NCBI GenBank assembly: GCA_009782215.1
Contig: WRKO01000002.1
Span: forward strand, 111,850 to 175,849
DNA length: 64,000 bases
Direction: 5' to 3'
DNA from: Oscillospiraceae bacterium
Lineage (GTDB): Bacteria; Bacillota; Clostridia; Oscillospirales; UBA929
Shown here one piece after another: positions 16,397 to 40,268 of the stretch; position 1 is the first letter of the stretch; each line of letters opens with the position of its first letter. Under the pieces are notes generated by a model. That model ran no database searches and had not been told where the DNA came from. It saw only the letters and a list, made by a program, of their open reading frames with translations. The position numbers and the translations under genes are program-made.

Positions 16397-18091
16397 GCTG
16401 CTGATAACATTGACGGCGTAGATTTTGTCCGGGTGGTTGCGGGACATTTGAAATACAGTATTCCCCTCCGTGGAGGGGTGGCACGAAGTGCCGGGGTGGT
16501 TCACATTTAACAACATATCTATATCAGCTTGCAGTTTAATCTCAATGTGGTCTTCGTAGACGAGGATTTTTTCTATCATCAGCTCCAAGTCCTGCCTGCT
16601 GAGGGCCGGCTTGTCCAGCACGTCGTTGAAGATGTCTATGGCGGTCTTGGCGATGCGGTTCGAGCGGATGACGGCGTTTCGCCGATCGGCGGTCAGCGTG
16701 ATTTGGTTTTGCAGCCCGGTGATGCGGTTCTCGGCCTCGATTTCCATTTCGGCATAGGTTTCCTCGATGACCTCCTCGGCTTCGGGGCGCTTTATGATTT
16801 CCCGTATCTTCTGCCGCTTGATGGCTTTGAGTTCCTCCCGCGCCGCGTCAAGCTGGGTTTCGAGGACGGCCAGCGTCTCGTCATTGTGTTTGACTTCACC
16901 GGCTTCCTTTTTGATTTCTGCTTCCAGCCGGGCAAGCATGTCCGCGGAATGGTCCCGCACACGCTGGACGTAGGATTTCAGCAAGCCGTCCAGCACGTCC
17001 ACCCGCGTGTGGTGGGAAGTGCAGCCCGCCAGACCGCGCTTGTGGTATGACCCGCAGGTGTAGGCGGGGCGCAGGTCGCGGCGGGACATGGAGAACATCG
17101 GGCTGCCGCAGTCGCCGCAACGGATAAAGCCGGAATAGACGTTGTCGTTTTTCCTGACGCCCCGGTAGTGGTTGGCGCCGCGCTTTTTGAGCTGCTCCTG
17201 CGCGATGGCGAAGGCGCGGTATTCGATGATAGGGTCATGGTGGTTTTCAAAGACGATGTGGTTTTCCGCGTCCACCCTGACCTCGGAGCCGTTGATGTTT
17301 TTGCGTTTGAACTTGCCCTGCCGCAGGGTGCCGATATAAAAATCGTTCCGCAGGATGCCCTCAATGGTGGCGATGCTCCACTCCGGCTTGGCGAGCCTCT
17401 TGGATTCCTCGCCGCGTTCTTCTTTGCGCGCCCGCTCGTCCATGCGCGGCGTCGGGATGTGCAGCGCGGTCAGGTGGTTCGCGATTTTTTTGTAGCCCCA
17501 GCCGTCGTTGTATAAGGCGAAGATTTTCCGCACCACCTCGGCGGCGGGGTTGTCCGCCCCGAACGCCATTGTCTTGCTGTTGGTGATGACGTAGCCGTAC
17601 GGCACGGCGCAAATCCATTTGCCGTCGGCTTGCCGCTTCTGGATGACGCTCTTGACCTTCTTGGACGCGTCGGTGACGGGCAGCTCGTTGACGAGAAAGC
17701 GGAATTGGATGGACACCCAGTCGTCATACGTCGGGAAGTCGATGCTGTCGCCGATGGAGATGATACGCACCCCGGCGTCGCGCAGGTCTTCCAGCTCGAC
17801 CAGCCCCCGGCTGTTGCGGCGGGAGAAGCGGGAGAAATCCTTGACCACCAAAATGTCAATCTTGCGTTCCATCAGAAGCGGGCGCAGGGACTGGTAGCCC
17901 TCCCGCTGCTCAAAGGTGTAGCCAGAACGGTCGCGGTCTTCGTAGAAGGAAAGGGCGGAGCCGGGGAACTTGCGCTTGACAAACTCATCGATAATCGCCT
18001 TTTGGTTTTCGATGGAGGTGTTGTCCCTGTCCATCTCCTCGTCCACGGATATGCGGCAATATCCGGCGATGCCGTATGCCTCTGCCACCAT
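15944..18091 (-). CDS. large serine recombinase; the ORF reads through its own crossover site into the spoVT 3' portion (565 aa recombinase-specific plus 150 aa SpoVT-derived)
   Basis: N-terminal resolvase domain (GYCRISVDEE...ENQ, IDILVVKDFSRFSRR), recombinase domain, zinc ribbon (CGDCGSPMF...CGSYHKRGLAGCTSHH), coiled coil, and the ...ILVYEDHIEIKLQADIDML end typical of LSRs. GGAGGTG lies before the ATG at 18091. Confidence 0.9.
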   Translation of the reverse strand: MVAEAYGIAGYCRISVDEEMDRDNTSIENQKAIIDEFVKRKFPGSALSFYEDRDRSGYTFEQREGYQSLRPLLMERKIDILVVKDFSRFSRRNSRGLVELEDLRDAGVRIISIGDSIDFPTYDDWVSIQFRFLVNELPVTDASKKVKSVIQKRQADGKWICAVPYGYVITNSKTMAFGADNPAAEVVRKIFALYNDGWGYKKIANHLTALHIPTPRMDERARKEERGEESKRLAKPEWSIATIEGILRNDFYIGTLRQGKFKRKNINGSEVRVDAENHIVFENHHDPIIEYRAFAIAQEQLKKRGANHYRGVRKNDNVYSGFIRCGDCGSPMFSMSRRDLRPAYTCGSYHKRGLAGCTSHHTRVDVLDGLLKSYVQRVRDHSADMLARLEAEIKKEAGEVKHNDETLAVLETQLDAAREELKAIKRQKIREIIKRPEAEEVIEETYAEMEIEAENRITGLQNQITLTADRRNAVIRSNRIAKTAIDIFNDVLDKPALSRQDLELMIEKILVYEDHIEIKLQADIDMLLNVNHPGTSCHPSTEGNTVFQMSRNHPDKIYAVNVISSGDPLEIYTDKDGEVIFKKYSPMGELSAFASQLCETLGKTTGAMVCVCDRDAVIAVHGLPQRDLMERRVGEELEKIMESRQIYQYKQGGPKIPVSDGAEKYHAGLAAPIVAEGDVSGAVVFLLPDTGQPYSDTEYKLAQTVAGFLGKQMES
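16368..16417 (-). other. hybrid (attR-like) serine-recombinase site: element-type arm, core GGCGACCC, spoVT arm
   Basis: The minus strand reads GCCGTCAATGTTATCAGCAGC-GGCGACCC-GTTGGAGATCTACACCGAC. The core (plus-strand 16389-16396) is identical to the core at 40179-40186. Confidence 0.75.
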
Positions 18092-18166
18092 TGCACCTCC
18101 ATTCTGTGTGGTTTATAGCAACATTGTATCATGGGGTGGGGTGGATTGCAAGGGGGGAGTTTGGGA

Positions 18167-18195
18167 TTGCATATTGTCGGAAAAATGAGTATAAT
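18167..18195 (+). promoter_or_regulatory. sigma-A-type promoter for mrr
   Basis: TTGCAT-N17-TATAAT, about 30 nt upstream of the mrr ATG. Confidence 0.55.
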
Positions 18196-18225
18196 TACAA
18201 CATCAGCGACAGAGGAGGGTTTTCA

Positions 18226-19113
18226 ATGCATGATACGACAGGCAATCGAGTTCCAAAAGACAAAGATTTAATCATGCCTACGTTTGCCGCGCTTAAGAGT
18301 TTGGGTGGTTCGGGTAGTAATGACGAAATACTTGATCAGGTTATCTTGGATTTACAACTGCCTGATAAAGTTGTGGATGTGCCGCATAAAGGAAAAGTAA
18401 ACATGACCGCTCTACAATATAATCTTGCATGGGCAAGGACATATTTGAAAAATTACGGCGTCATCAGCAATAGCGCGCGAGCGGTTTGGTCAATATTACC
18501 TGATTATGTTGGCATCGACCAGTTGGACGTGCAATCCATTGTTTTGGCAATGCGAATGAAGCGTCTCGAAAACCGTAATAAACAATCTGCCATCATAGAG
18601 GGTCCTTGGGGCAGTGAAGACGATGACGAGGGCGAGTTGAATAACCTTGATGGGGTTATGTCTTGGCGGACAAAGTTGTTTGAAACATTGAAAACGATGA
18701 ATCCATTCGGCTTTGAACGGCTTTCACAGCGACTTCTCCGAGAATGTGGTTTTTCCCATGTTGAGGTTACAAAAAAGTCCGGCGACGGCGGAATTGACGG
18801 TCACGGAAAGTGGAAAATCAATGGAATATTCAGTTTCAATGTCGCTTTTCAATGCAAGAGGTATGGTGATGTTGTCGGCGCTGGGGATATCCGTGATTTT
18901 CGTGGGTCGTTGACCACCGACATCGAAAAGGGTATTTTCATCACCACCGGAACTTTTTCCAGAGCGGCAAAAGAGGAAGCGTCCAAGCCGGGCAAGCAGC
19001 AAATCGACCTGATTGATGGTGAAGAGCTGCTTGACAAAATCGCCGAGTATGGAATTGGAGTCAAGGAGGTTAAGACCTATGAAATTGACGATGAGTTCTT
19101 TGAGAAGATATAG
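18226..19113 (+). CDS. mrr: Mrr-family type IV restriction endonuclease
   Basis: Start trimmed to the ATG at 18226 (GAGGAGGG RBS). N-terminal winged-helix Mrr_N-like region and an Mrr catalytic core (GDGGIDGHG...FQCKRY...GIFITTGTFS). Visibly AT-richer than its surroundings. Confidence 0.85.
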   Translation: MHDTTGNRVPKDKDLIMPTFAALKSLGGSGSNDEILDQVILDLQLPDKVVDVPHKGKVNMTALQYNLAWARTYLKNYGVISNSARAVWSILPDYVGIDQLDVQSIVLAMRMKRLENRNKQSAIIEGPWGSEDDDEGELNNLDGVMSWRTKLFETLKTMNPFGFERLSQRLLRECGFSHVEVTKKSGDGGIDGHGKWKINGIFSFNVAFQCKRYGDVVGAGDIRDFRGSLTTDIEKGIFITTGTFSRAAKEEASKPGKQQIDLIDGEELLDKIAEYGIGVKEVKTYEIDDEFFEKI

Positions 19114-39961: not shown

Positions 39962-40021
39962 CGCACAGATGACGGAGGCTCTGCAGACGGAGCCCCCTAA
40001 ATCCTTCCAAGGGTACTTTCT

Positions 40022-40051
40022 GCATAGACAGACAACTCTTTGCGCAACCTA
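40022..40051 (+). promoter_or_regulatory. forespore sigma-G/sigma-F-like promoter upstream of the spoVT 5' portion
   Basis: GCATA-N18-CAACCTA, against the B. subtilis sigma-G consensus GHATR-N17/18-CATXHTA (one mismatch in the -10). It ends 37 nt before the start codon. Confidence 0.35.
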
Positions 40052-40088
40052 TGGATGAAATCCAACTCGGTAAATAGGAGGGAATCCA

Positions 40089-40268
40089 TTGAAAGCGACA
40101 GGAATTGTCAGACGGATTGACGACCTCGGACGCGTGGTCATCCCCAAGGAAATCCGCCGCACCATGCGTATCCGCGAGGGCGACCCCACGCTGACGACAT
40201 TGACGCTGTGGGAGAGGTTTTGCATGGCGATGGATGGGTTGGCGAGACGATTGGGGTTGGGTACATAA
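40089..40268 (+). pseudogene. spoVT: spoVT 5' portion (codons 1-33) running into 26 unrelated codons
   Basis: TTG start with AGGAGG 7 nt upstream. (M)KATGIVRRIDDLGRVVIPKEIRRTMRIREGDP matches the SpoVT/AbrB N-terminus almost residue for residue, then TLTTLTLWERFCMAMDGLARRLGLGT and a stop. Not in the ORF track (59 aa, TTG start). Confidence 0.85.
40158..40207 (+). other. hybrid (attL-like) serine-recombinase site: spoVT arm, core GGCGACCC, element-type arm
   Basis: The plus strand reads ACCATGCGTATCCGCGAG-GGCGACCC-CACGCTGACGACATTGACGCT. The element-type arm is an imperfect inverted repeat of the arm at 16397-16417. Confidence 0.75.

Follow-up and report, generated by a model that had tools for sequence, protein, structure and literature searches.

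A large serine recombinase element divides spoVT between inverted attachment sites in an Oscillospiraceae bacterium

We analyzed a 64,000-nucleotide stretch of contig WRKO01000002.1 from an Oscillospiraceae bacterium (assembly GCA_009782215.1), hereafter the window, in which the sporulation gene spoVT lies in two widely separated parts, one of them next to a gene for a large serine recombinase (LSR). The gene is broken at an 8-bp core, with its 5' part at 40089-40186 on the plus strand and its 3' part at 16396-15944 on the minus strand. A plus-strand open reading frame (ORF) at 40089-40268 starts with SpoVT residues 1-33, and the remainder of the protein is encoded by 16396-15944 on the minus strand; the insertion point is at spoVT codons 31-33 (G-D-P). 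On the plus strand, the core reads GGGTCGCC at 16389-16396, and its reverse complement, GGCGACCC, is found at 40179-40186. The two cores are in inverted orientation, as the initial annotation of this DNA had claimed. The features on which the argument depends are as follows.

15944-16396, minus strand: spoVT 3' part (SpoVT_C/GAF domain; PF15714, 140 bits), containing the core 16389-16396 and forming, in frame, the C-terminus of a 715-amino-acid (aa) recombinase ORF
16371-16421, unstranded: attachment site attR, a spoVT-side half-site with core GGGTCGCC and the element's P arm (motif 16401-16414)
16397-18091, minus strand: LSR gene with Resolvase, Recombinase and Zn_ribbon_recom domains, abutting the spoVT 3' half and lacking a stop codon of its own ahead of the attachment (att) core
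19517-19756, plus strand: conserved 79-aa ORF, candidate recombination directionality factor (RDF) by its linkage to the recombinase
40022-40051, plus strand: GCATA-N18-CAACCTA, a promoter of forespore type (sigmaF/sigmaG-like) that precedes the spoVT 5' part
40089-40268, plus strand: spoVT 5' part, a 59-aa ORF with AbrB-like domain residues 1-33 up to the core 40179-40186, then a 26-aa tail encoded by the P' arm
40154-40212, unstranded: attachment site attL, a spoVT-side half-site with core GGCGACCC and the P' arm (motif 40191-40204)
40187-40790, plus strand: detached P'-proximal piece of the element, comprising P' arm, tail and promoter as well as the gene for a DNA-deoxyinosine glycosylase

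The core occurs 13 times in the window, compared with approximately 5 expected occurrences, and because of these copies the 8-mer is not special alone and proves nothing by itself. A 14-nucleotide (nt) arm motif, GTCAATGTYRTCAG, has exact matches in the window only at 16401-16414 and 40191-40204, each located 4 nt from a core, and a scan of the window revealed no further att-like arms beyond the two sites. attL and attR share the 8-bp core only, and identical arms flank the cores in relatives. At attR, the plus strand carries TC as the central dinucleotide and the minus strand carries GA. The spoVT 3' part shares 81% nt identity with the intact spoVT gene of the relative L087. When the two halves are combined and compared with that gene, the nonsynonymous rate (dN) is 0.049 and the synonymous rate (dS) is 1.1, with no frameshift or stop and a dN/dS of approximately 0.04; the halves are free of lesions.

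We simulated the inversion of window 16397-40178, which comprises 23,782 bp, and obtained exactly the two products that had been predicted for this locus, i.e., an intact spoVT and an attP-like site. The first product joins the halves into a 180-aa SpoVT with an AbrB-like N-domain (PF04014-type) and a SpoVT_C domain that scores 140 bits against PF15714. This composite protein covers model positions 1-180 of TIGR02851 with 223.3 bits, just below the curated cutoff of 235.9, and is 91-93% identical to the intact proteins of relatives, which JGI labels SpoVT. Precise recombination would restore the spoVT ORF, as in sporulation gene-intervening elements. The second product, CGTCAATGTtaTCAGCagcggcGAccccacGCTGAcgACATTGACG, is an imperfect palindrome centered on the GA in mid-core and shares the 8-bp core with attB. 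The attP site of an LSR is approximately 40-50 bp, its imperfect inverted arms enclose the 2 bp at which crossover occurs, and it is identical to attB over a short stretch only; the reconstructed site has the form expected for such an attP.

The recombinase itself has the features of this enzyme class. LSRs contain resolvase catalytic, recombinase and zinc-ribbon domains within approximately 450-700 aa, and the 565-aa recombinase portion encoded here matches PF00239 (68 bits), PF07508 (80 bits) and PF13408 (47 bits). In the PDB, the SPbeta integrase matches it best by sequence (E = 5e-17) and is the solved structure closest to it. Judged by domain layout and attP architecture, the protein is an LSR, and in an alignment of 25 family sequences it has the common residue wherever a column is invariant. 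Because the core encodes G-D-P in both genes and the recombinase ORF has no stop codon before the core, the ORF runs in frame into the spoVT 3' part, which results in a 715-aa chimera of recombinase and SpoVT_C (Rec-SpoVT_C).

This chimera characterizes a family that is widespread among Oscillospiraceae. It is present in 110 of the 120 best protein clusters (63-80% identity) and in all 80 of the best-matching genome loci within a one-genome-per-species collection, with Dysosmobacter, Flavonifractor, Oscillibacter, Lawsonibacter, Intestinimonas and Evtepia among the genera; Anaerotruncus massiliensis also carries it (P0012). Some of the chimeras are named by NCBI 'stage V sporulation T C-terminal domain-containing protein'. 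Two contigs hold free or unintegrated elements in the attP state. One of them, which encodes P0008 (L083), is 18 kb long and also carries a D5_N primase and Mor; the other, L293, encodes NikA/MobC, an AAA_25 protein and the recombinase, followed by attP and an AlbA_2 gene. Mobility genes within the family include a relaxase, MobC and a primase. Based on the chimera family and the free attP forms, we conclude that the recombinase is part of a mobile element with spoVT as its target. Our literature searches turned up no report of spoVT as a target of such elements.

Several further observations concern the proteins encoded across the att sites. The integrated state encodes both an LSR-SpoVT GAF-like fusion and a 59-aa AbrB-domain protein, and the in-frame crossing is found family-wide. 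The conserved 26-aa tail of the 59-aa ORF (TL.pWe.F..AM..L..R) is the native C-terminus of the recombinase in the attP state, and short forms of the recombinase end in a tail resembling the one predicted here after inversion. In L293, attP (5080-5130) lacks the central GA and the recombinase stops prematurely at 535 aa; this contig may represent a dead copy or an aberrant recombination product. The short recombinase P0038 was considered as a chromosomal attP form and rejected, as it is truncated by a transposase.

To place the inverted geometry in context, we located the other spoVT half within 10 kb around the recombinase of related loci, a range beyond which it lies in most of them. Three loci (L026, L057 and L073) have the spoVT 5' half within that distance, upstream and on the same strand, and thus contain direct elements of 6-11.6 kb, with attL and attR arms the same as those in the window. 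The IMG/VR contig 3300029887_000254 likewise carries the 5' half (L215) in the same orientation as the chimera (L172), at a distance of approximately 18 kb. The synteny comparison with related genomes called for in the initial annotation gave one answer: all four relatives with resolvable geometry are direct, which corresponds to excision, and none is inverted. Most of the IMG/VR matches to the SpoVT N-domain are phage AbrB-like genes and were set aside as irrelevant.

How the sites came to be inverted is suggested by the element itself, which lies in two pieces, with a recombinase end that extends from 16397 to at least 19.76 kb and a P' end that extends from 40187 to approximately 40790. The recombinase-end piece includes a small ORF also conserved in L293. 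The P' end contains the glycosylase (UDG-like) ORF at 40331-40831 on the plus strand, which matches TIGR04274. In the metagenome contig L091, the same block of spoVT 5' half, core, P' arm, promoter and glycosylase is found at 83% nt identity over window 40072-40787, but with a different spoVT upstream flank and with genes for AlbA_2 and a type I methylase (HsdM) downstream of the glycosylase. Because that block continues into AlbA_2, whose gene directly adjoins attP in L293, the glycosylase is element cargo. Homology between the window and L091 stops at 40787, where thrS starts, and this point marks a breakpoint at approximately 40.79 kb that was not made by the LSR. Taken together, we consider it very probable that a second, non-LSR rearrangement made attL and attR inverted. 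The simplest such event would be an inversion with one end within the element, at 19.8-27.6 kb, and the other at the junction of tuf and thrS (approximately 40.79 kb), and canonical integration followed by inversion, or the reverse order, would lead to the identical final structure. An alternative in which thrS and an HD-domain gene are cargo, with the tuf/fucose-isomerase junction (as in L084) as the breakpoint, was rejected on the grounds that L091 homology ends at 40787. No inverted repeats that could mediate the second inversion were found at 27.6, 40.8 or 43.3 kb.

Two side observations concern the surroundings of this breakpoint. In L084 and L085 (L084:19574-22154), tuf is directly followed by fucose-isomerase-like and aldolase genes, and in the window tuf (27636) and the fucose-isomerase/aldolase block (43368) are 15 kb apart and divergent, a further sign of local rearrangement. 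In addition, a deoxyinosine glycosylase gene 83% identical to the element copy occurs at L092:10001-10468 in an ordinary chromosomal context without an att site, which suggests that the element may have captured the gene from a host.

The inverted geometry matters because of what lies between the sites and beside them, which can be summarized as follows.

18226-19113, plus strand: Mrr-type restriction endonuclease gene, low-GC element cargo
19818-27560, unstranded: two pairs of LytTR response-regulator and GHKL-kinase genes and a gene for a 925-aa Big_5 surface protein; accessory DNA, of element or host
27636-39961, mixed: chromosomal stretch between the sites, with tuf, fusA, rpsG and rpsL (minus strand), tRNA-Ser, secG, and groES-groEL (plus strand)
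40824-42578, minus strand: thrS, the chromosomal gene at the breakpoint, sharing 8 nt at its 3' end with the glycosylase ORF

The 23,782-bp segment between the sites includes 12.6 kb of essential genes. The initial annotation had noted that essential genes fall inside the segment, and the genes rpsL-rpsG-fusA-tuf, tRNA-Ser (32190-32278), secG and groESL are indeed found there, together with a mannitol-dehydrogenase-like gene and genes for a sigma factor with DUF4367, an EAL-HDOD protein and an AlkZ-like protein. It had also limited accessory DNA to 18.2-27.6 kb and assigned the rest to the core genome; the gene content is as it listed, but 40187-40790 is element DNA. No homologues of the genes at 19818-27560 were found at other recombinase loci, and look-ups of the tuf and Big_5 proteins gave no matches. 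The LytTR response-regulator genes at 19998-20466 and 22198-22666 are paralogues that form a 469-nt inverted repeat with 78% complementarity. Upstream of groES, at 34557-34599, a perfect 19-nt inverted repeat holds TTAGCACTC-N9-GAGTGCTAA, a match to the CIRCE/HrcA operator. Outside the segment, an HTH_3 gene and a BspA-type LRR_5 gene (14948-15878) sit between spoVT and fliK; in L087, the fliK operon directly follows spoVT.

We next consider whether the segment could flip. LSRs cut at the central dinucleotide, rotate by 180 degrees and religate; attP x attB recombination needs the LSR alone, and attL x attR recombination needs an RDF as well. The 79-aa ORF has a homologue at 75 of 92 recombinase loci, directly upstream and co-oriented in 45 of those, and because of this family-wide linkage it is the best RDF candidate. 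The protein belongs to no Pfam family and has no PDB fold match at E <= 0.001; its AF2 model (pLDDT 75) has the order beta-beta-alpha-alpha-beta-alpha. The recombination parts are all intact, i.e., the LSR, the candidate RDF ORF and both site arms. Since the sites are inverted and the non-palindromic GA fixes their polarity, inversion rather than excision is predicted, which agrees with the expectation of the initial annotation for an LSR acting on these sites. Standard assays show that, with att sites inverted, LSRs flip the DNA between them in either direction (PMC12286644).

In the reaction that we propose, LSR dimers on attL and attR would synapse with the help of an RDF, for which the 79-aa ORF is the candidate, and cleavage at the central GA, 180-degree rotation and religation would follow. 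The resulting flip of the 23,782-bp segment would rebuild spoVT behind the forespore-type promoter and would also rebuild attP, by which the recombinase would regain its native 29-aa C-terminal end (G-D-P plus 26 aa). Acting alone on attP x attB, the LSR would then return the segment to its starting state, and no DNA would be lost either way. Flipping is plausible because it would follow from whatever program drives excision in the canonical copies, and we place the chance that it occurs in sporulating cells slightly below even. For the statement as a whole, i.e., that the locus is a rearranged, still recombination-competent copy of a spoVT-targeting LSR element, we consider the case evenly balanced.

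The identity of the interrupted gene gives this reaction a particular setting. The promoter GCATA-N18-CAACCTA is conserved in L087, L086, L026 and L104, and it resembles the sigmaF/sigmaG consensus. The spoVT gene of C. difficile is expressed in the forespore under sigmaF/sigmaG and is needed for heat-resistant spores (PMC3789822), and in B. cereus it is essential for sporulation (PMC5061766). The known intervening elements interrupt mother-cell genes and persist as their rearrangement stays in the mother cell (PMC4191935, PMC5595907). With a target in the forespore, the reaction would instead have to be reversible in order to be both useful and heritable, which the inverted copy would achieve without the risk of loss. 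More speculatively, and with little expectation that it will prove correct, spoVT-targeting LSR elements might represent the first programmed DNA rearrangement in the forespore, the germ line of the spore, through excision and reintegration canonically and through inversion and re-inversion here. In that case the inverted copy would act as a rewritable integrase switch of natural origin, unable to lose DNA, and the family-wide in-frame swap of C-termini (native tail versus SpoVT GAF) could add control.

We evaluated three other explanations, beginning with the possibility that the contig of this metagenome-assembled genome (MAG) wrongly joins the recombinase side and the tuf side inside the Big_5 gene, such that the true orientation and distance of the sites differ. 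The ENA contig L001 covers window 5944-26504, which includes flagellar genes, attR, the recombinase and part of Big_5, and the ENA contig L090 covers 25846-40441 with one mismatch and crosses the Big_5/tuf junction and attL. Furthermore, the JGI contig L088 has 100% identity over 39616-41246 (AlkZ, spoVT 5' half, P' arm, glycosylase and thrS) and spans attL. The overlap of L001 and L090 within Big_5 shows 89% identity, with the first mismatch at 25965 and the last at 26480; L090 begins 119 nt ahead of the first mismatch, where it is identical to L001, and L001 ends 24 nt past the last. This divergence of approximately 10% over 25965-26480 in ENA sample ERZ27257348, with L001 ending at 26504 and L090 starting at 25846, counts in favor of a false join, as the branch in the assembly graph coincides with the meeting point of the two segment halves. 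However, the two contigs are collinear, in-frame portions of one 925-aa ORF, which is the simple pattern of a strain bubble rather than a chimeric join and supports contiguity. There is also no repeat of useful length near the junctions, and the P' arm passes directly into thrS in two assemblies, one of them with the 100% identity of L088, which means that this element copy is rearranged regardless. Independent contigs span attR (L001), attL (L088 and L090) and Big_5/tuf (L090), and we regard a misassembly, which the initial annotation had named as a possible refutation for the contig join at either site, as very unlikely. As a side observation, the second Big_5 haplotype, which is approximately 10% divergent over 25965-26480 and comes from the same ENA sample (ERZ27257348), points to strain-level variation of this surface protein. 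Both haplotypes share the arrangement, which is hence of some age.

The two remaining explanations accept the structure and differ on its function. The element could be an inert relic, trapped by the secondary inversion and never recombining, in a host that has no need of spoVT or no longer sporulates and in which the gene stays split. The split state is the only one found in every assembly and in exact look-ups, the related element L293 has decayed (premature recombinase stop and attP without the central GA), synteny in the lineage is fluid, and nothing links the recombinase or the small ORF to control by sporulation; the intact parts would then reflect how recent the event was. That explanation is less easily reconciled with the retained invariant LSR residues, the intact small ORF and the exact arms, with spoVT halves that are without lesions at a dN/dS of approximately 0.04, with the age implied by two Big_5 haplotypes sharing the arrangement, and with the requirement for spoVT in heat-resistant spores of C. 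difficile and in B. cereus sporulation (PMC3789822, PMC5061766). We therefore view a relic as a real possibility, albeit a doubtful one. Conversely, the locus could be a switch that evolved for its purpose in cis, with an ancestral attB in spoVT, attP 24 kb away and the recombinase domesticated as an invertase-like regulator of sporulation, which is how the initial annotation saw it when it likened a natural attB/attP pair kept in cis to engineered integrase memory switches. The geometry and products exactly match those of an engineered rewritable integrase switch, and inversion spares the forespore genome any loss of DNA, which suits a forespore-expressed gene (PMC3789822). Yet the family is mobile (relaxase, MobC, primase and the free attP forms L083 and L293) and targets spoVT, all four of the resolved relatives are direct, and no second genome with the arrangement was found. 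The glycosylase at the attL side is detached cargo, with the breakpoint at 40.79 kb inside its 3' end, which is the signature of an accidental rearrangement. A purpose-evolved switch is thus highly unlikely, and we prefer to see in the arrangement an accidental offshoot of a family of excision-type elements.

Several results weigh against our own interpretation of a rearranged copy that can still recombine. The flipped state, in the form of the exact composite SpoVT and the attP-form recombinase, was absent from an exact look-up among approximately 15 billion proteins, and the ENA assembly has no contig break near either core. The inverted geometry was seen in one organism and may be a recent accident that has not had time to decay. 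We found the ancestral arrangement in no close relative, and the synteny of the spoVT upstream flank is not conserved among the closest intact spoVT genes, although the downstream synteny (spoVT followed by the fliK operon) is kept in L087. Because the upstream flank varies, synteny could not fix the breakpoints: the left one falls somewhere between 19.76 and 27.63 kb. GC skew shows no reversal and offers no usable signal of recent inversion. The candidate RDF is assigned by linkage, with no Pfam or fold match, and the source is a MAG, for which the three assemblies may stem from related termite-gut read sets.

If the segment flips, the locus would be a natural integrase memory switch, working from attL/attR, that governs an essential sporulation regulator through reversible inversion of 24 kb of core chromosome; no natural LSR has been described as acting in this way. 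Independently of any flipping, the analysis uncovers a large family of spoVT-splitting elements on which we found no paper. Its forespore target challenges the rule that intervening elements survive through rearrangement confined to the mother cell, and this rule becomes testable in cultured carriers such as Anaerotruncus massiliensis, Flavonifractor sp. An100, Lawsonibacter celer and Dysosmobacter segnis, which have the direct geometry.

Among known systems, the closest are the elements skin/SpoIVCA (sigK), SPbeta/SprA-SprB (spsM), gin/GirC-GirX (gerE) and yin (yabG), in which an LSR element likewise interrupts a sporulation gene at a short core. As in those elements, the attP arms are imperfectly symmetric about a central dinucleotide, the reading frame is restored exactly, and a small partner protein is expected to set direction (PMC4191935, PMC5595907, PMC5025042). 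The locus differs from them in that its inverted sites predict inversion of 23.8 kb, including essential genes, with no excised circle, in that spoVT is a gene of the forespore line rather than the mother cell (PMC3789822), and in that the recombinase ORF crosses the att site to encode the Rec-SpoVT_C chimera when integrated. Prophages split by chromosomal inversion in pneumococci also have their ends put in a non-canonical arrangement by a secondary rearrangement (PMC8637289). In those prophages, the inversion occurs by homologous recombination between repeats (PMC8637289); here, in contrast, there is no repeat at the breakpoints, and an interrupted developmental gene is affected. The predicted outcome at the spoVT locus further resembles that of Hin, Gin, Cin and Pin, since a serine recombinase would switch gene expression by inversion between inverted sites. 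Those small invertases comprise approximately 190 aa with a C-terminal helix-turn-helix, act on identical sites with the aid of an enhancer that binds Fis and are limited by topology to inversion, whereas the enzyme described here is a 565-aa LSR with differing attL and attR and no built-in preference for inversion, which sets it apart from that class. Finally, Bonnet et al. reportedly engineered in 2012 a rewritable integrase switch in which an LSR and its RDF flip DNA between inverted attB/attP and attL/attR. The reaction predicted here is the same, in that LSR and RDF would convert inverted attL/attR to attB/attP by inversion and LSR alone would reverse it; unlike the engineered device, this copy is natural and apparently accidental in origin, and it would move 24 kb of chromosome instead of a promoter cassette.

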